A stretch of DNA of 64,000 nt, taken from NCBI GenBank assembly GCA_963422615.1, contig OY730414.1:124001-188000 (forward strand). The letters are read 5' to 3'. Below, piece by piece: positions 12,409 through 21,264 of the stretch. The DNA comes from Longimicrobiales bacterium (lineage in GTDB: Bacteria; Gemmatimonadota; Gemmatimonadetes; Longimicrobiales; Gaopeijiaceae). The position numbers were made by a program, and so were the translations under genes. Positions within the stretch are counted from its first letter, which is position 1. The number at the start of each line of letters is the position of its first letter. The notes below the pieces were generated by a model. The model did not search any database and had not been told where the DNA came from. It saw only the letters and a program-made list of their open reading frames with translations.

Positions 12409-13105
12409 CCGCCGCACCGCTCTGGTGACGGGAGCGACCGGGGGGATCGGGGCAGCGATCGTCCGGCGCTTGGAGGCAAACGGCTTTCGGGTCTACGCTG
12501 GCGGACGAAACGGGACCCGCCTCAAGAGCCTAGCCTCTCTTGAGAACGTAGTGGCGCTGCCATTCGACGTGACCGTCGAAGGAGAGGTTGAACGTGCTCG
12601 GGAGGGAGTCGCCCAGGCGGGCGCCACCCCCCTGGACTTGGTGGTGAACGCCGCCGGCGTCTTCGGTCTGGCACCGGTGACCCAAACCCCCGGGGCCCTT
12701 CTCGCCCGCAGCCTGGACGTCAACCTCAGGGGCGCCTTCCACGTTGTGCGCGCCTTTCTGCCGGCCATGCTGGACGCAAGGGCGGGACTCGTCGTCAACG
12801 TGGGTTCAGTCGCAGGCCGACGGGCCTTCCCTGAAAACAGCGCCTACAGTGCCTCCAAGTTCGGACTTCGGGGGTTCCACGAGGTTCTCCTGGAAGAGAT
12901 GCGTGGCACGGGCGTCCGGGCATGCCTGCTGGAGCCCGGGGCCGTGGACACCCCTCTCTGGGATCCGCTGGATCCCGATTCCGTTCCTCACCTCCCGAAC
13001 CGGAGCCGGATGTTGCGTCCCGACGATGTGGCCCGGGCGGTGGAATTCATGGTCGGGCTGCCGGCTCGGATCTCGGTACCCCTCATCCAGGTAGAGCGGG
13101 CGTGA
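12401..13105 (+). CDS. SDR family oxidoreductase
   Basis: VTGATGGIG, VNAAG, YSASK catalytic motif, PGAVDT. Confidence 0.93.
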   Translation: MTDRRTALVTGATGGIGAAIVRRLEANGFRVYAGGRNGTRLKSLASLENVVALPFDVTVEGEVERAREGVAQAGATPLDLVVNAAGVFGLAPVTQTPGALLARSLDVNLRGAFHVVRAFLPAMLDARAGLVVNVGSVAGRRAFPENSAYSASKFGLRGFHEVLLEEMRGTGVRACLLEPGAVDTPLWDPLDPDSVPHLPNRSRMLRPDDVARAVEFMVGLPARISVPLIQVERA

Positions 13106-13851
13106 ACGTCCTCCTGACCGACCACTTGGTGTGTCCCCGCTGTGGTCCTCCCTTCGGACTCGTCCTGCTGGCCCGGGACGTGCGGGACCGACGGGTCCGC
13201 CGGGGGGAGCTGGGCTGCTCGAACTGCCGCGATGCCTTTCCCGTCAAAAACGGCTTCGCCGATCTGCGTCCTCCCCCTCGGGATCCTCCGCCGCTGGAAC
13301 CGGGAGGGGGCGCTTCGGGAGCGGGCGGACGGGCACCCCAGGATCCGCGCCAGGGCAAGCCTCCCTCCCTCCTCGCCCCTTCCGGAGGAGGAAGCGGCGA
13401 CGACACCTCGGGGCATTCGCCCCTGAAATGGGCGCCCGGCGGCCTTACCCTGGGCTTGGCCGCGTCTCTGGGCGTGACTGAGGGACCCGGGCTGGTGATG
13501 GTTTCGGAGGCCCACAGGGACAAGGCCGTTTCCCTTTCCCGCTTGGTTCCAGGCATCGAGGTGATCGCCCTCGGGTGGGGAGGACGAGACTTCGAGTGTC
13601 CCGGAGCGGCGGTTAGCCCCATGGTCACGGCCGACCGGTTGCCCTTTCGTGACGGATGCGCGCGGGGGGTGGTGCTGGCGGGCGAAGACTTCAAGCGACG
13701 TTGGCGCGAATCGGCCCGAGTGCTCGTGGCCGGGGCGAGGGTTGTGATCACGGATCCGCCCCCCGAGGCCCGGAAGCGCTTGGAGTCCTGCGGGCTGGTC
13801 GTGGTACTGGACGGCGAGGCGTTTCTGGCAGCGGGAAGAAAGCGGGTGTAG
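13102..13851 (+). CDS. Trm112-like Zn-knuckle protein with a degenerate methyltransferase-like C-terminus
   Basis: LVCPRC...LGCSNCRDAFPVKNGFADL; LPFRDG motif; GTG overlaps upstream stop. Confidence 0.75.
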   Translation: MNVLLTDHLVCPRCGPPFGLVLLARDVRDRRVRRGELGCSNCRDAFPVKNGFADLRPPPRDPPPLEPGGGASGAGGRAPQDPRQGKPPSLLAPSGGGSGDDTSGHSPLKWAPGGLTLGLAASLGVTEGPGLVMVSEAHRDKAVSLSRLVPGIEVIALGWGGRDFECPGAAVSPMVTADRLPFRDGCARGVVLAGEDFKRRWRESARVLVAGARVVITDPPPEARKRLESCGLVVVLDGEAFLAAGRKRV

Positions 13852-13883
13852 CCAGGAGCCCCTGTGCAGAAAGGGTCCTGGCT
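13850..13883 (+). terminator. Inverted repeat after the queD operon, at the left edge of the accessory block
   Basis: agccaggagccc...gggtcctggct hairpin; no U-tract. Confidence 0.45.
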
Positions 13884-13890
13884 CCAAGTA

Positions 13891-13921
13891 TTGACAAGTC
13901 CACTGCGTTTTCGCATACCTT
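13891..13921 (+). promoter_or_regulatory. Possible sigma70 promoter for a leaderless transcript starting near ATG 13928
   Basis: Perfect TTGACA at 13891 and TACCTT at 13916-13921, 7 nt before the ATG; 19-nt spacer is suboptimal. Confidence 0.4.
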
Positions 13922-13927
13922 AGGGTT

Positions 13928-15397
13928 ATGTTTCCCCGGTCCTCCCCGGTCCTCCCCGGTCCTCCCCGGTCCTCCCCGGTCCCCCGGTCCTCCCCGGTCC
14001 TCCCCGGTCCTCCCCGGTCCTCCCCGGTCCTCCCCGGTCCTCCCCGGTCCTCCCCGGTCCTAGGCGCCAATGATCCGGGGTCGCATTCTCATCTAGCGGA
14101 GAAACCCGCACCTGACGCGACGGCGATTCCTGCACCGTCAACGCCGGCGCCTTTCGTACGATTCAAAGCGGAGACGATTCCCTCCCGTGCGGAGCACCAC
14201 GAGAGCCTCCCGCATATCGTCAAGTTTTCCGGCGGGAGATCTTCCGCCACCCTAGCCATCCTCCTCGCGGAGTCGGGTCTGCTCAAGCCCCAGCGAGGTG
14301 ATGCGATTCTCTTCGCCAACACATCGGCAGAGCACCCGGCCACTTACGAGTTCGCCCGAAAGTGCAAGTCCGAACTGGAGGGGAAATTTGGCATTCCGTT
14401 CTTCTGGTTCGAGTTCTGCACGGTGGAAGACGCGTCCCGCGGCGCCTACGCACGGCGCGCATCGTACCGCCTCGTCAAGCCGGTGCCCATTGAGAAAGAC
14501 CCGGCAGGCTATCGTTCCCACGGCGAAGTGTTTGAGGAGATGCTCTCGTACCAGGGCATGCTTCCCAATCCGCATCAGCGGTCCTGCACGGCCAAGCTGA
14601 AGCTCTATCCATCGCACCAGTTTCTTGCCGAATGGCTGGGCAGGACCCGAGGACCAAGCCACACCGGACACCACGGCGACAGGCGCTATTTGACCCCGGA
14701 GACCGCACTCGCGCAGTATCGAAGAAACGGCGGAAAGGCTTCAAGTCAGGCCTACCTGAAGCGCGTCCGCTACATGACGAACCAACCCCCGGCTCGCCCA
14801 GCCCAGCGGTGGTGCGACTACACCCACGCAGACATTCCGGTTCGATCCGGCCGGCCCGGCCCGGTTTCCATGTGGGGACCTTGTGCGGCGCGTCACGTTA
14901 CAATGCTGGGGCTTCGCGCAGACGAACCCCAGCGCATCAACAAGATCACAGCCCGATCGATCTTCGCCGAAGGCGCCGGAAGCAGGTCGTGTGCAATTCA
15001 CACTCAGCCCCCGGGCGAATATCCGTGCTTCCCCCTGGCGGACTGGGGATTCGACGGCGGCGCGGTTCGCCAGTTTTGGCTTCGGCGCAGCTTCGACCTG
15101 GATGCCCCGGCCCACGCCGGCAATTGCGTTTTCTGTTTTATGAAGGGAACCCATGCGCTTGCTTCGGCGGCCCGCCGCTGCAGCCCGCCAAACGTAAGGG
15201 CCCCGTCGGACATCTCTTGGTGGATCGAAATGGAAAATCGCTACGGTCGAATCGAACCATCCCGAGATGCTCCGGGAACGACCCGGTTTGGCTTCTTCGG
15301 CGTACGCGGACCCACCTTCGCCGAGCTCGCAGATGGTGCTGTCGCGAAAAACGGACGCTACGCCACAGGCTCCCCGGCGTGCGACTGCACGGACTAA
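13928..15397 (+). CDS. PAPS-reductase/DndC-like adenine-nucleotide alpha-hydrolase (PP-loop) protein with Cys clusters
   Basis: VKFSGGRSS PP-loop, FANTSAEHPATYEF, RSCTAKLK, GLRADEPQR, FPLADWG, GNCVFCFMK, terminal CDCTD. Confidence 0.85.
   Translation: MFPRSSPVLPGPPRSSPVPRSSPVLPGPPRSSPVLPGPPRSSPVLGANDPGSHSHLAEKPAPDATAIPAPSTPAPFVRFKAETIPSRAEHHESLPHIVKFSGGRSSATLAILLAESGLLKPQRGDAILFANTSAEHPATYEFARKCKSELEGKFGIPFFWFEFCTVEDASRGAYARRASYRLVKPVPIEKDPAGYRSHGEVFEEMLSYQGMLPNPHQRSCTAKLKLYPSHQFLAEWLGRTRGPSHTGHHGDRRYLTPETALAQYRRNGGKASSQAYLKRVRYMTNQPPARPAQRWCDYTHADIPVRSGRPGPVSMWGPCAARHVTMLGLRADEPQRINKITARSIFAEGAGSRSCAIHTQPPGEYPCFPLADWGFDGGAVRQFWLRRSFDLDAPAHAGNCVFCFMKGTHALASAARRCSPPNVRAPSDISWWIEMENRYGRIEPSRDAPGTTRFGFFGVRGPTFAELADGAVAKNGRYATGSPACDCTD
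13933..14060 (+). repeat. 10-bp tandem repeat (TCCCCGGTCC): 12 full units plus one 8-nt unit, 128 nt
   Basis: Read directly: 5 units, one truncated unit at 13983-13990, then 7 units. Confidence 0.97.
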
Positions 15398-17329
15398 ATG
15401 AAATCTGAATTCGTGAATCCAGACCTGCTTTTTCAACCGGGCCCGCCCCAGGGCTTTTCGACGCTGGCAACCGCTCAATGGCACGGCAATCCTGAACCAA
15501 TCGTTCGCGAACTACTCCAGAACTGTTTAGACGCCGCAGAAAAAGCAAAGCGGAACAAAGCGGAAGTTTGGTTCACTGCCCTGGACGTTCCCAAGTACGA
15601 CATTCCGGGAATTGCCTCCTACCAGTACCACTTCGAAGAGGCCGTACACCAGCGAGCATTTGGGACACAGGGAGAGAACGAGAAGCAGGTAATCCGACGC
15701 ATCAAGAAAGTTCTGAAGGCCCCGCGCATTCCCGTGCTGTATTGCCGGGATAACGGCGTTGGACTCAATCCGGACCGCATGTCACGGCTCCTCACGGAGG
15801 GCAACACCGACAAGGGTCAAAAGGGTGCGGGATCTTACGGAATCGGGCACCTTACGGCCTTTGCGGCTTCAGATTTGCGTTACATCTTGTATGCTGGTCG
15901 GTACCGGGACCAGAAGGCCGAAACCTTACGCGACGTTTCCAGTGCTCACGCAATTCTTGCGTCATGCAAGACCAAGAACGGCGGCGTCGGAGGACGCGGC
16001 TACTGGCTCATCGTCGAGCAGACCCTTTTTGATGCTTCTCCCTATCCCGGTCAAGCGCCTCCGTTGCTGGCGCGGGAGCTGGATCAGCTGGAGGAAACCG
16101 GGAGCGTGATAGGCATTCCGGGGTTCAACGACTTTCGGTGCAGTGACCCGATGGATGCAATCGCCCGGGTGGCTGCAAAGAATTTTCTTGTCGCCATTTG
16201 GCAGGGCAAGATGCGGGTGAGAATTCGCGGCCAATCCGAAAAGGCCGTAGACGGTCGCCAGGGGCTCCTGAATGTCCTTGCGCCGGAAAAGAAAAAGAAG
16301 CAAGCGGAACAGGGCGGAGGTTGGCTATCCGGCGCCCAAGCCTATCAAGCGTGGGAGACGCTGGACCAGGGTCGCAGGTTCACCCTCACATCAGGGGCCC
16401 AAGTCTACTTCCGACCTCTGCCGAAAGACACCGTGACGACGCAATCTCGAGTCCAGCTGTTTCGCAACGGCATGTGGATTACCAACAACGCAGACAGACT
16501 CAAGCCCTTCGACTTCAACGGAGTAAATCCATTTAGCGCAGTAATCATGATCGAGGACGGTGAGCTTTGCCGCCTTGTGCGCGGCGCGGAGGGTCCGGAG
16601 CACAGAGGCTTGGTTCGGAAGCGCCTGAATCGCAATGATAATAAGCGACTGTTGGAGCTCCTGAAGCAGATCGCCAGCGAACTTCGAACAGAAGCCGGCG
16701 AAACCGAGGCGACTCGCGAATACACACCGACCGACTTCGCGATGTTTCCCGGACAGTCACAGCCACAAGCCGAAGTCGTGCCCCCGTATCGGCCGCGCCG
16801 CCCACCTTCCGATTCAGAAGGACGATCGACGACTTTGCAACCGACGGATGACGAAAACGGTATTGATCGTTCGCACAAGGGAAAAACCCGATCCCGAGGC
16901 CGTGGCGCGGCACCCAAGCCCGGACGCAGCCTGCCGGGCAGGTTTTCTGTGCTGGGCATACGAAATTCCGAAGGCAGAATCGACACAGTTCGAGTCGTCT
17001 GGCAACAGGGCGGGCGCACCAATGCGGCGAAGGGCCCTCTTGGCATTCGTATGCGGGTTCGTTCCGGATCCGACGAAACATGCGATCGACCCTTGGCTCC
17101 CGAGTGGCTGCGCCTCCGGGAGATTCGCCACCCGGACGGGATCACGCGGCCTCAAACCCGCGATCCTTGTGAGGTCAGACTTCCCCGGGCCCACTCCGAG
17201 TTTACCGTGGCATTGGCGCATGCGGTCGACGATCCCAACGCCATTGAGATCGATTTCGTGCAACGAAGGGGACGCGCGTCAGGAAACCACCAGCGACCGA
17301 AACGTTCAGACGCATCTAGCCGTGCTTGA
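15398..17329 (+). CDS. GHKL (HATPase_c-like) ATPase, ZacA-like
   Basis: RELLQNCLDA N-box, RDNGVGL G1, GSYGIG G2; starts immediately after the upstream stop. Confidence 0.82.
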   Translation: MKSEFVNPDLLFQPGPPQGFSTLATAQWHGNPEPIVRELLQNCLDAAEKAKRNKAEVWFTALDVPKYDIPGIASYQYHFEEAVHQRAFGTQGENEKQVIRRIKKVLKAPRIPVLYCRDNGVGLNPDRMSRLLTEGNTDKGQKGAGSYGIGHLTAFAASDLRYILYAGRYRDQKAETLRDVSSAHAILASCKTKNGGVGGRGYWLIVEQTLFDASPYPGQAPPLLARELDQLEETGSVIGIPGFNDFRCSDPMDAIARVAAKNFLVAIWQGKMRVRIRGQSEKAVDGRQGLLNVLAPEKKKKQAEQGGGWLSGAQAYQAWETLDQGRRFTLTSGAQVYFRPLPKDTVTTQSRVQLFRNGMWITNNADRLKPFDFNGVNPFSAVIMIEDGELCRLVRGAEGPEHRGLVRKRLNRNDNKRLLELLKQIASELRTEAGETEATREYTPTDFAMFPGQSQPQAEVVPPYRPRRPPSDSEGRSTTLQPTDDENGIDRSHKGKTRSRGRGAAPKPGRSLPGRFSVLGIRNSEGRIDTVRVVWQQGGRTNAAKGPLGIRMRVRSGSDETCDRPLAPEWLRLREIRHPDGITRPQTRDPCEVRLPRAHSEFTVALAHAVDDPNAIEIDFVQRRGRASGNHQRPKRSDASSRA

Positions 17330-18119
17330 ACCCTTGCCGGATTCGTTCCCAATTCTCTTGGAAGACGGATCGAGACTTGATTGGCCCGGCGCCAAATACG
17401 AACCGAGCGTCTACGTCGGCCCCAGTCAGGCAAATATTACGCACAAACTATCCGGCGCACACGAACTCGCAACGTTGATTGAGAGAGGAAGCGCGATGTG
17501 GGCCGCGGAGTTGCGATGTCCAAAAACGCTCATGGCTCGAATAGAGACTTGCAGCAGCGACCGCCAACAGGTGACGTGGAACGAAAGGGATGTAGACGGG
17601 GACATATATGTCATGCCCGGAGTTGTGACGAACGAGAGGTTGGTGCTTGAAGGAGCAGAGTTGAGTGCCATCTGGAAGGACATTTTGCCGTTGCAGGCAC
17701 CTCGAGGATGGTGGCTTGTCCGCGGGAATGTACGCCGGACAAAAACGCTGGCGGAATCCCTACTCAAGTTTGTACTGGAAGAAAATGCAGAGAGCGGCCG
17801 TATCGAAGTCAAGCCCGACAGAAGTAGCGGTCGGCTGCGCTTCACGGTTCACGTGGATCCCGACCTCTTTGAACATGTCAAGTCGGATCGTACCTTGAAA
17901 ATCGCAGCGCTCGTGGGTGCCTGTGGGTGGTTACCAGAAATCTTTCGTCTTGATGACCCGGCGGCCGACGAAGATCCTCTTGCCACCCAGCTGCGCGAAC
18001 TCTTGACCAGCAGGGAACCGGATGTACGGCTCTGGGATCACGACCTCTACGACCCGGCTCTTGTAGCCACGATCCTTGAACCCCTCCACTTCGACAGCCA
18101 GGACCCCAGGGATGGATAG
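17322..18119 (+). CDS. Hypothetical protein, ZacB-like position (265 aa)
   Basis: GTG start overlaps ATPase stop; globular composition; AELRCPKTLMAR motif. Confidence 0.7.
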   Translation: MLEPLPDSFPILLEDGSRLDWPGAKYEPSVYVGPSQANITHKLSGAHELATLIERGSAMWAAELRCPKTLMARIETCSSDRQQVTWNERDVDGDIYVMPGVVTNERLVLEGAELSAIWKDILPLQAPRGWWLVRGNVRRTKTLAESLLKFVLEENAESGRIEVKPDRSSGRLRFTVHVDPDLFEHVKSDRTLKIAALVGACGWLPEIFRLDDPAADEDPLATQLRELLTSREPDVRLWDHDLYDPALVATILEPLHFDSQDPRDG

Positions 18120-19002
18120 ACATCTGCTTGAGAGGACGGGGTCGCGGTTTGACGAATGGCAAAGGGGAATTATCTTCCAGAGTACGCGCCACGGAAAATG
18201 GACAGCCGCTGACCCGAGAATTACAAATCCAATTCGGAAGCGACAGGAAGAACTCCAAGCTGCAATTTCCGCTGGGGCACACGCCTTGAGCGCCTATCTA
18301 CGTAAGAAACTACAAATCTCCCAAGGCGAACTCGGCGCCCCTAGGTTTCCCAGGCCGAGGCTAACCCCACGGGAATTTCAGGACCCGCCCTTGGAACTGG
18401 AGGAAGAACTTGGGAAGGCCTGGATCGGCCTTCGTACGAGCTTGACATCACAGCCGTTGTTCTGGTTGCTGTGTCACATAGACTGGCTTGAACAGGGCCG
18501 TTTCGATGTTACTGGCCATCATCTGGCCGAAGCCTTCACGGCCGGGCACGGCGATACGAAGCGTGAGGCCCGTACTCGAAATTTTCTCCGGCGCACAAGT
18601 GGACTCCCGGTAGCACGTGGAAATACGTCGGTCTTTTCCGACTGCCTCATGGCTCGATCTTGGTGGCGTTACCATTTAGCCGACCAGGTAGAAAAAGTCA
18701 CAGCAGGACGGGTCCGACGCAGAACTGCCCACCGGGTGCTCCACACGAACCGGCCAGCATGGGAAGAGCTCATCATGCGATCTCTGCGGCGCATCACCGT
18801 GATCAACCAGCCCCGAGCCCGTGCGGCGATCGTGCACCAGCTGGCGAGCCGCCTTGAATCGCGCGGGCACATTGACAAAAAAGATGTGCAGGGAATCACT
18901 CTGGTGTTTGCCCGGCAAGGCTTGCGCCGATCCTTTGAGCACACCTCTTGGGAAGATCTAACGGGAGGATCCCGAACGACCCCGAGCTCGGCGACAACAT
19001 GA
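18112..19002 (+). CDS. Hypothetical protein, DUF6339/ZacC-like (296 aa)
   Basis: 8-nt overlap with upstream gene; FWLLCH and MARSWWR resemble remembered DUF6339 LW..LTH and SRLWW motifs (not searched). Confidence 0.65.
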   Translation: MDRHLLERTGSRFDEWQRGIIFQSTRHGKWTAADPRITNPIRKRQEELQAAISAGAHALSAYLRKKLQISQGELGAPRFPRPRLTPREFQDPPLELEEELGKAWIGLRTSLTSQPLFWLLCHIDWLEQGRFDVTGHHLAEAFTAGHGDTKREARTRNFLRRTSGLPVARGNTSVFSDCLMARSWWRYHLADQVEKVTAGRVRRRTAHRVLHTNRPAWEELIMRSLRRITVINQPRARAAIVHQLASRLESRGHIDKKDVQGITLVFARQGLRRSFEHTSWEDLTGGSRTTPSSATT

Positions 19003-19072: not shown

Positions 19073-20926
19073 ATGTCAATGTTGAGTATACCGCCCAAGT
19101 ATCTCAACCGCAAGGTTATGGACTGGCTGAAGATGGCCGATGCCGGAGAACTGGTCCTCCCCAGTTTTCAGCGTAGCTATGTTTGGGATCCTCCAAGGGT
19201 CGCCAACTACCTGGTGGCCCTGCTGGAGCGCAAGCCGACCGGAACATTCCTCATTCTCGAAGCAGACGATCCCATCCAGTTCAGTTCACGTCGCCTACTC
19301 GGTTGCCGAAACGATGGCTCGGTCGGGAAACCGAGAGAGCTCGTGCTGGATGGCCAGCAACGCTTGACCGCGCTTTGGGGAGCACTGAGGGGCAACAAAG
19401 AGAAGCGGTACTTCATTCGGGTGGAGAATCTTCTGCATTGCAAGATGATTGTAGAAGAGGTGGTCTGGCGAAGTCCAAAGTGGAAGGCCAAGAACCCGGA
19501 ATTGATCTGGAAGGAAAACTTGGTCCCGGCGGACATTTTGTGGCACGACAGGGATTCGTCGACTGGATCCGGTACCCTGGATCGCATCGCGGAATGGTGT
19601 AAGACCGCTCCGAAAACGAAGGGAGGTCCGAATTTTCTGTACCAAGCGATTGCTAGGCTTCGGGAGCGATTGCTCATAGAGCCGTTTCTGCAGTACTGCA
19701 TGCTTGCAAAGGAAACGGAACCCGATGTGGCAATCGATATATTCATCAAGGTAAATGAATCTGCGGTCAAGCTGAAAAAGATTGACATCATCGTGGCGCT
19801 TGCTCAGTCCGACCACGAGGTCGACTTGAGAAGTAGAGCTCGCGACTTCCTTCACCGAAGTAGCGAATTGCGGCATTATTTCAACCCGGTCATGCGAAAA
19901 GCAATTCCGGAAATCGCAGAATGGGTTCTCAAGGTCGGCTGTCTGAAGGTTGATAGCGAAGACCATCCGGATGGTCTTGCTCCGAAAGAATCGAACTACG
20001 TCTTGGCGATCAACTACCTGACGGAGAGGGATCTGAACGAACTTGAAGGCGACCTTGACGCGACGCTGAACTTTGTCGCTCGTAACGGCGGCGGCGCTAC
20101 AAAGAGAACCCTCGCAGCATGGCCGCCGGTGCACGTGATCGCAGCTCTGCAGAATGACTTGCGAGCCGTCGCAAATGTCTCCGCGGGCGCGGTGAACCAT
20201 CTCATTCTGTCGTATCTGTGGCGTTCATTTCTGACCAGCCGCTACCAGGCCATCGCGAACGACCGACTGCTGCATGACTTTAGGGGCCTTCGCGAATACC
20301 TCAGAAGGGTGGAAACAGGGTCTGGCAAGCCCAACCTTGCCGCTACTGTGCCGATATTTGACGAGAGTGCGTACCCTCTTCCAAGCGCAGAATCGCTTCG
20401 GAGACCGACCGGAGTTCCCTGGATTGGAGGCATTTCAAGATTAGGGCGAGCCATTGCCGCTGTCGTCATGCAGAAAAATCCGCTTGACTGGGTAACGGGT
20501 CAAGAACTTGATTTCGAGCGGGTGCGCGATCTCGAGTCCAAGAAGAAGCTCAAGCGACATTATGTCTTTGATGAAACTTGCTTTCCTACAGATGTTTTGG
20601 AAAAAATTTCTATCAAACACGGCCTCAACGGCGTCCTCCTTGCAAGGCCCAGCGTCCCGACTGGAAACGATAAAGACCCAGTGAACTTCCTGGAATGGAT
20701 TCGGCAAAACAAACCGAAAGTGACCGAATTGGAAATTCTTCGCCGAACCGGTTCCCATCTGATACCGTACAAGTCCCTTGAGAAGAATGGAAATCTTGTG
20801 TGGCACTATAGCAACTTCCTCAAGGCGCGCGCCGTAAAAGTGGAGGAAGAAATTAGGAAGCTCACGACCCTTCGATCAAGGGATCCGGATTCATTACGTT
20901 GGGCCAAGCGCCGCTCCCCATCTTGA
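19073..20926 (+). CDS. DUF262-domain GmrSD-like protein
   Basis: LVLPSFQRSYVW, LVLDGQQRLTAL, IFIKVN...KL motifs of DUF262. Confidence 0.88.
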   Translation: MSMLSIPPKYLNRKVMDWLKMADAGELVLPSFQRSYVWDPPRVANYLVALLERKPTGTFLILEADDPIQFSSRRLLGCRNDGSVGKPRELVLDGQQRLTALWGALRGNKEKRYFIRVENLLHCKMIVEEVVWRSPKWKAKNPELIWKENLVPADILWHDRDSSTGSGTLDRIAEWCKTAPKTKGGPNFLYQAIARLRERLLIEPFLQYCMLAKETEPDVAIDIFIKVNESAVKLKKIDIIVALAQSDHEVDLRSRARDFLHRSSELRHYFNPVMRKAIPEIAEWVLKVGCLKVDSEDHPDGLAPKESNYVLAINYLTERDLNELEGDLDATLNFVARNGGGATKRTLAAWPPVHVIAALQNDLRAVANVSAGAVNHLILSYLWRSFLTSRYQAIANDRLLHDFRGLREYLRRVETGSGKPNLAATVPIFDESAYPLPSAESLRRPTGVPWIGGISRLGRAIAAVVMQKNPLDWVTGQELDFERVRDLESKKKLKRHYVFDETCFPTDVLEKISIKHGLNGVLLARPSVPTGNDKDPVNFLEWIRQNKPKVTELEILRRTGSHLIPYKSLEKNGNLVWHYSNFLKARAVKVEEEIRKLTTLRSRDPDSLRWAKRRSPS

Positions 20927-21190: not shown

Positions 21191-21264
<74 letters not shown>

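Follow-up and report, generated by a model that had tools for sequence, protein, structure and literature searches.

A 10-nt tandem array as a candidate phase-variation switch of the PP-loop gene heading a likely phosphorothioate-like cassette in a Longimicrobiales bacterium

Introduction

For methyltransferases, it is well established that defence genes can be switched by repeats, and the rationale usually given is bet-hedging, in which protection is weighed against what modification costs. In phase-variable restriction-modification (R-M) systems such as type III mod and type I hsd, the coding sequence contains a simple repeat whose unit length is no multiple of three, the gene is ON in one third of the repeat lengths, such repeats have originated independently on repeated occasions and several loci occur in one genome. 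The locus described here and its relatives share these traits, whereas the repeat belongs to a PP-loop protein instead of a methyltransferase, has a 10-nt unit and is found in uncultured symbiont hosts. Repeat surveys of R-M genes, covering types III and I, counted homopolymers from nine bases upwards (PMC5909438, PMC7383803), and the survey of mod genes took in units of 1-9 nt (PMC5909438).

The phosphorothioate systems Dnd (DndA/C/D/E), Ssp (SspA-E) and BREX type 4 (BrxP) form the second point of comparison, as they encode a PAPS-reductase-like PP-loop protein with cysteine motifs, an ATPase and a cysteine desulfurase. Their core ATPases are described as ABC or ring-forming in PMC12707154, and BREX type 4 and the DUF262 proteins are described in PMC12839542 and PMC12137116. 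According to a 2018 review, DndC carries the motif SGGKDS and simple repeats were not seen in dnd genes or their promoters (PMC6435447). A screen for new phosphorothioate systems demanded a PAPS-reductase domain together with a P-loop NTPase (PMC12914056), and would therefore miss a cassette built on a GHKL ATPase. In PMC2292703 and PMC8011034, GHKL ATPases are described beside R-M genes, with neither PAPS nor PP-loop partners in the passages compared, and GHKL and MORC go unmentioned in those of PMC10853773. The term HATPase was absent from six papers searched for it. No paper naming PDC-M33 or DUF6339, and none on phase variation of R-M through homopolymers in sponge symbionts, was found in the searched literature, a body of text that leaves most subscription papers and supplements outside its scope; the supplementary neighbourhood tables of phosphorothioate and PADLOC papers may already list the cassette.

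Here we analysed a 64,000-nt stretch (the window) of the genome of a Longimicrobiales bacterium (G000), in which a first-pass annotation had read an array at the start of a gene, g1, as a phase-variation switch of a defence operon. The reading is supported by the frame arithmetic, by the G/C runs and frameshifts of related cassettes and by repeats in the R-M genes of the same genome. We consider it probable from the sequence data that g1 is phase-variable and heads a likely phosphorothioate-like modification or defence module of undescribed make-up.

Gene content of the cassette

The features of the cassette and of its surroundings are compiled in Table 1.

Table 1. Features of the cassette and its flanks, in positions of the window.
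Feature	Position	Strand	Basis or role
G+C-rich inverted repeat, right behind the Trm112p-like gene, possible terminator	13850..13883	+	read from sequence
Promoter-like TTGACA-19 nt-TACCTT, ending 6 nt before ATG 13928	13891..13921	+	read from sequence
g1, PP-loop protein, SspD/DndC/PAPS-reductase-like	13928..15397	+	PADLOC, fold, alignment
Tandem array, 12 full 10-nt units and one 8-nt unit	13933..14060	+	candidate slipped-strand switch
8-nt unit, brings the assembled allele into frame	13983..13990	+	sequence, frame arithmetic
Out-of-frame stops TAG 14061 and TGA 14071, with 8-codon dead-end ORF (ATG 14070-TAG 14094)	14061..14096	+	sequence
g2, GHKL (HSP90/sacsin-like) ATPase, PADLOC PDC-M33A	15398..17329	+	E 1.2e-27
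g3, unassigned protein, weak PDC-M33B match	17322..18119	+	E 0.0018-0.0042
g4, unassigned protein, akin to DUF6339-bearing sister-clade frame	18112..19002	+	E 9e-20
g5, GmrSD_N (DUF262), accessory, candidate restriction or sensor component	19073..20926	+	Pfam E 1.9e-20
tRNA-Ile(GAT), right edge of the inserted cassette	21191..21264	+	Rfam

The protein encoded by g1 carries the motif FSGGRSS at 14225 (SGGRSS where DndC has SGGKDS), and its conserved part begins near residue 84. SspD was its sole PADLOC match (E 2.7e-11, over short stretches), the Pfam PAPS_reduct score of 17.2 bits was under the cut-off of 22.5 bits, and the Atlas comparison gave 0.94 to a PAPS_reduct cluster. Seven cysteines were invariant in 31 aligned sequences. 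The structural model (pLDDT 70) showed a PP-loop fold with Z values of about 9-10, tied among GMP synthetase, PAPS/APS reductases, NcsA, thiolases and others; Foldseek with this model returned no match at E <= 0.001, and a sequence search of solved structures gave 0 matches. None of the methylase families matched g1, which separates it from phasevarions, where the switched gene is a DNA methyltransferase. No match to g1 was obtained on plasmids. By exact look-up g1 was present in no cluster and g2 and g5 formed clusters of one, and no second strain of the species was found.

The ATG of g2 abuts the stop of g1, the GTG of g3 overlaps the stop of g2, and throughout g1-g4 starts and stops either abut or overlap. 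The genes g2, g3 and g4 were present in 76, 75 and 74 of the 78 homologous loci with enough downstream DNA, and a GmrSD_N gene in 12 of the 78. No P-loop family matched any of g1-g5, the g2 profile matching the GHKL type only, and neither a DndE nor an SspB/DUF4007 profile matched g3 or g4. For g4 there was also no Pfam match, and its best Atlas value (0.77) was uninformative. The cassette differs in these respects from Dnd, Ssp and BREX type 4, which use an ABC or AAA+ P-loop ATPase (DndD, SspC, BrxC), and no match to DndD/DndE, SspB/SspC, BrxC or PglZ was obtained here. Matches to PDC-M33A and PDC-M33B lie side by side in g2 and g3, the B match being weak. In comparison with PDC-M33 and the paraMORC/GHKL R-M neighbourhoods, the triad is headed here by a PP-loop gene (74-76 of 78 loci) and a repeat switch is added. 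Distant relatives of g2 on plasmids (4 of 17 records) occurred in such a triad, in which DUF6339 is annotated in three, next to methyltransferases, Vsr, nucleases or AbiG.

A search of the phylum matched 14 of 401 genomes and included a sister clade with 36-41% identity, in which a cysteine desulfurase gene was situated directly behind g1 in all six loci (6/6). In genome G005 this desulfurase matched DndA and SspA at E ~1e-140, and the cassette ended in a PbeA-like helicase (E 3e-154). The sister-clade order (L114:1529-9892, G005) was g1-like gene, cysteine desulfurase, GHKL ATPase, g3-like gene, DUF6339 and, in G005, the PbeA-like helicase. Further loci of this clade were L137, L138, L139/L145, L141, L143 and L095, several genomes had both clades, and a C19 run was observed upstream of g1 in L141. 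Among the 93 loci collected earlier, a desulfurase was found only beside sister-clade copies (2 loci) and none adjoined the cassette in the window's own clade; G000 has unlinked class-V aminotransferase genes of the desulfurase type. The cassette thus shares with Dnd, Ssp and BREX type 4 a cysteine desulfurase, whose gene is linked in the sister clade and unlinked in the window's clade, and in some related loci also the DUF262 protein (SspE-like) or a PbeA-like helicase.

On balance, we lean towards g1 as a sulfur-transferring PP-loop enzyme which, with a desulfurase, g2 and g3/g4, would modify DNA in a phosphorothioate-like manner for defence or epigenetic marking. The sulfur would be passed on with the cysteine desulfurase, linked in the sister clade and presumably a housekeeping enzyme in the window's clade. 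The match to SspD alone in PADLOC, the seven cysteines, and the linkage to a desulfurase in the sister clade, with the PbeA-like helicase in one locus, argue for this role and against the possibility, to which we assign real though lesser credence, that the switch is genuine and g1 is another PP-loop enzyme (for nucleotide adenylation, base modification or signal synthesis) joined to the GHKL-g3-DUF6339 triad. The latter would suit the tied fold matches, the plasmid triads (4 of 17 records), beside which no PAPS-like gene is annotated, and the distant phage PAPS-reductase-like genes that also match g1. With sulfur transfer as the preferred role, the cassette is predicted by analogy to work like a Dnd or Ssp modification module, yet it lacks their P-loop ATPase and DndE/SspB features.

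Flanks and promoter of the cassette

The cassette is located between a Trm112p-like gene and tRNA-Ile, and its G+C content is lower over most of its length. The Trm112p-like zinc-ribbon gene (window 13102-13851) is fused to a longer domain and was conserved in 58 of 61 family genomes; the two flanking genes adjoin directly in one of the 19 relatives examined. Neither an att-like direct repeat nor an integrase was found at the cassette ends. The inverted repeat behind the Trm112p-like gene has no T run, and the scan did not list it. The promoter-like element upstream of g1 was likewise missed by the consensus scan, which accepts spacers of 16-18 nt, its own spacer being outside this range. Its distance from the start codon suggests, as read from the DNA, that the g1 transcript may be leaderless. 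The same TTGAC-19-TAC spacing was seen by eye upstream of L008, L009 and L011, and the promoter-like site of tRNA-Ile has a spacer of 17. Capture of the upstream promoter from the tRNA was rejected, as the tRNA has its own promoter-like site both in the window and in L153.

The array and the reading frame

The array stands, exactly where it was first annotated, directly behind ATG 13928, and its 128 nt are made up of five 10-nt units, one 8-nt unit and seven further 10-nt units. Tandem Repeats Finder reported a period of 10, 13.1 copies, 96% match and a score of 244, the highest of its 38 rows in the window. The two-unit string had no second site in the single-contig genome of 2,574,459 nt, by which a dispersed repeat was ruled out. 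A CRISPR-like array was dismissed for the absence of spacers, and an RNA gene because the sole Rfam match was the tRNA. The three-unit pattern was present in 1 of 201 family genomes, namely G000. No comparable 10-nt array was found in the 200 other family genomes or in the 93 homologous loci.

The ORF that begins at ATG 13928 and ends in TAA (489 aa) stays open across the array. As we tried pure-unit numbers from 0 to 16, the frame was open at 2, 5, 8, 11 and 14, and the assembled allele is open as well, which agrees with the earlier proposal that about one length in three is ON. With 12 or 13 pure units, peptides of 45 residues result, ending at TGA 14071 or TAG 14061; both other frames therefore stop just past the array, as had been claimed. 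The earlier view that no canonical start lies beyond the array also held in the codon scan, as no in-frame ATG, GTG or TTG occurs between the array and the motif. The ATG of the 8-codon ORF (window 14070-14096) overlaps TGA 14071 and could capture re-initiating ribosomes in one OFF frame.

The array might instead lie within a 5' leader and, by its length, adjust expression by way of a leader peptide or of the structure of the transcript, with g1 starting at ATT 14126 or ATT 14177, a reading that we regard as unlikely. Six near-cognate codons lie between array and motif (ACG 14120, ATT 14126, ACG 14141, ACG 14174, ATT 14177 and ATC 14216), and the ATT codons, 16 and 33 codons before the motif, are in keeping with the N-termini of homologues. 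Among the 106 motif-bearing homologues, the called starts were at a median of 31 residues before the motif (19-57 at the 10th-90th percentile) in comparison to 100 in g1 of the window. Against a leader, no well-spaced GGAG precedes any of the six codons and the RNA fold of the array region was no better than that of shuffled sequences (z 0.94).

Sequencing runs beyond the assembly

At least 0.91 of the sampled words were present in five sequencing runs, and two raw Hi-C runs gave no read over the locus. In the runs X4 and X5, which belong to two studies with two host labels, the contig of the left flank enters the array by 29-30 nt. In X4, loop contigs made of the pure unit were found at about ten times the depth of the flanks, the ten pure-unit words having depths of 61.7 (nine) and 65 (one) in comparison to 6.69 and 5.2 for the flanks. 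The array therefore exists outside one assembly, which largely refutes the possibility, named at first, that it is an assembly artefact. An artefactual origin of the array, or of the greater part of it, seems to us highly improbable, even with the 8-nt unit, which resembles a typical indel in a C run, lacking from the X4 and X5 contigs listed.

The 8-nt unit had been held to set the present in-frame state, which is true of the assembly alone. No contig listed in X4 or X5 contains this unit, and contigs drop rare variants; it may be a consensus error or a minor allele. The word depths in X4 translate into 93-119 (about 104) pure-unit words for each molecule, where the assembled allele has 70, and correspond to about 12-15 pure units; some nine molecules of that allele, beside the flank depths given above, would reach this total too. 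These values hint that the X4 molecules differ in their array from the assembly, and 13 pure units would be OFF. A side observation in X5 was a contig beginning at window 14211 with a depth of 17.4, about twice the 9.48 of the left-flank contig, which would fit a junction of two upstream-region variants at that point.

Repeats in related cassettes

The protein search with g1 gave 1171 matches among 8000 scored candidates, and 106 of the 120 matches listed carry the motif. We analysed 93 homologous loci, 80 from one-genome-per-species contigs and 13 of 16 from metagenomes, with lineages in Longimicrobiales/Gemmatimonadota, Dehalococcoidia, Thermoanaerobaculia, Acidimicrobiales and others, many bearing sponge-symbiont names. 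Of 87 loci, 16 have a homopolymer of at least nine bases in the first 400 nt before the motif, in comparison to 3 of 85 in the next bin and 0-1 of 65-83 loci in the bins more than 800 nt upstream. G/C runs of at least nine within 300 nt upstream of the motif were present in 16 of 76 species-set loci against 0.47 expected from the flanks. Among the 73 loci spanning the whole module, 36 have such a run inside it (about 8 expected), a density of 36 in 372 kb of module against 17 in 824 kb of flank. Each of the 36 runs belongs to a locus of its own, so that no cassette has two (2.5e-5 under random placement). Disruption of g1, by a break or by the lack of a start close by, was observed in 12 of the 36 loci with a run and in 3 of the 37 without (Fisher P 0.0095); such P values on runs are overstated by the relatedness of the loci. 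The cassette of the window has the array and no run of seven or more.

The 5' runs lie 3-25 nt behind an ATG in many loci; other runs are situated near codons 175, 240, 360 and 390 of g1 or inside g2. A frame-split g1 was found in nine loci, with the split at the run in six and elsewhere in three, and g2 was split at its run in L004, L005, L065 and L068 and in frame at the run in three loci. As homopolymer lengths in long-read assemblies are error-prone, the ON and OFF calls of relatives are soft. Most of the 5' runs fall between the ATG and the domain with no later start, which together with the internal runs and their frameshifts argues that the family switches by frame and speaks further against the 5' leader. 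L036, L042, L052 and L085 conform better to a leader, as a canonical in-frame start lies downstream of their run, and so do L004 and L017 with a short ORF upstream. This ORF is led by an ATG behind a -10-like box about 110 nt upstream of the motif, its stop overlaps the TTG start of g1, and the run of both loci is in g2.

In a FastTree tree of 89 rows the 5' run label requires 10 changes, eight of them forced by starred branches. Common ancestry of the upstream regions was rejected, as the alignment of eight such stretches was poor, with a mean column identity of 45%. With the label changing repeatedly on the tree and the upstream DNA aligning so poorly, the repeats have been gained or lost on many occasions. 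Among the 15 members listed (of 23) of one 90% protein cluster, N-terminal stretches of 4-9 prolines occur in seven, in two frames, and seven were called from downstream of the motif, as were nine of the 15 listed members of another 90% cluster. Truncated gene calls as proof of OFF alleles are weakened by run-free control clusters, with 4 of 15 truncated in each of two. ON and OFF alleles were found among the homologues, through homopolymer runs rather than the 10-nt array.

Other repeats of the related loci were an AG tract of 17 units in g1 of L066 (+1041 from the motif), an imperfect 10-nt repeat of 4.4 copies in L069 (-142), a 7-nt repeat of three copies in L034 (-276) and, about 310-1060 nt upstream of the motif in L011, a 304-nt unit repeated 2.5 times with a G run in each. 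In L136 and L144 (G200) about 1.7 kb of intervening DNA splits g1, perhaps an insertion element.

From the sequences compared, the relatives strongly support the switch reading, in which a cassette appears to have one repeat switch, a homopolymer in relatives and the array in the window. The array thereby seems to occupy a slot which homopolymers fill elsewhere, its units are near-perfect and g1-g5 are otherwise intact. All three points disfavour a neutral or decaying expansion of fixed length in an unstructured N-terminus or a dying gene. Such an expansion, very unlikely in our assessment, would accord with the uniqueness of the array to G000 and with a 10-nt unit that exceeds the 1-9 nt surveyed in mod genes (PMC5909438).

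Other long repeats in the genome

The genome has 38 homopolymers of at least nine bases and a few tetranucleotide arrays. In seven of the 13 long-repeat regions examined, the repeat falls within the frame of an R-M gene (two N6/N4 methylases, including a type III mod, three Eco57I/MmeI-like genes, a type ISP and an HsdR_N gene), at G000:C1:30288, 730518, 1153011, 1173122, 1194773/1195080, 1237525 and 2157113/2157636 (L100-L104, L106, L109). These repeats are long G/C runs and tetranucleotide arrays of 10 and 11 units, one of the Eco57I/MmeI-like genes is located beside a helicase, and as a set they represent a phasevarion-like repertoire in an uncultured symbiont. G/C runs of 10-20 were also present at glycosyltransferase and TonB-dependent receptor genes and at a small-molecule methyltransferase (G000:C1:2361882, 1222612, 2429074 and 1658011; L110, L105, L111, L108), and surface phase variation through such runs is possible. 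Two of the 13 regions belonged to no telling family.

Proposed switch and its significance

Under the preferred reading, translation would start at ATG 13928 and cross the array, and slipped-strand mispairing would add or remove a 10-nt unit and thereby shift the frame of g1. One length in three would yield the full protein; at all other lengths the product would be a peptide of about 45 residues. Very probably the array does change its length in the population. Loss of g1 alone would be expected to silence the module, to which we ascribe a putative anti-phage role. Polarity on g2-g4 is a plausible prediction, given their abutting or overlapping starts and stops, and is not needed for the switch, because relatives place it in g1 or in g2.

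More tentatively, the cassette may represent an undescribed class of phosphorothioate-like systems with a GHKL (MORC-like) ATPase, spread across phyla of sponge symbionts and repeatedly brought under the control of a one-repeat switch, and it might then be the first phase-variable phosphorothioate epigenome, with an unusually long unit of 10 nt; this wider claim is one we rate as somewhat less likely than not. The switching mechanism itself is a known one, acting here on an undescribed and likely sulfur-based module, and the ON allele provides a directly testable five-gene cassette. If true, these findings would signify a new architecture for sulfur-based DNA modification and would indicate that such modification can be phase-variable, and they would point to bet-hedging with defence systems as widespread among uncultured sponge symbionts.
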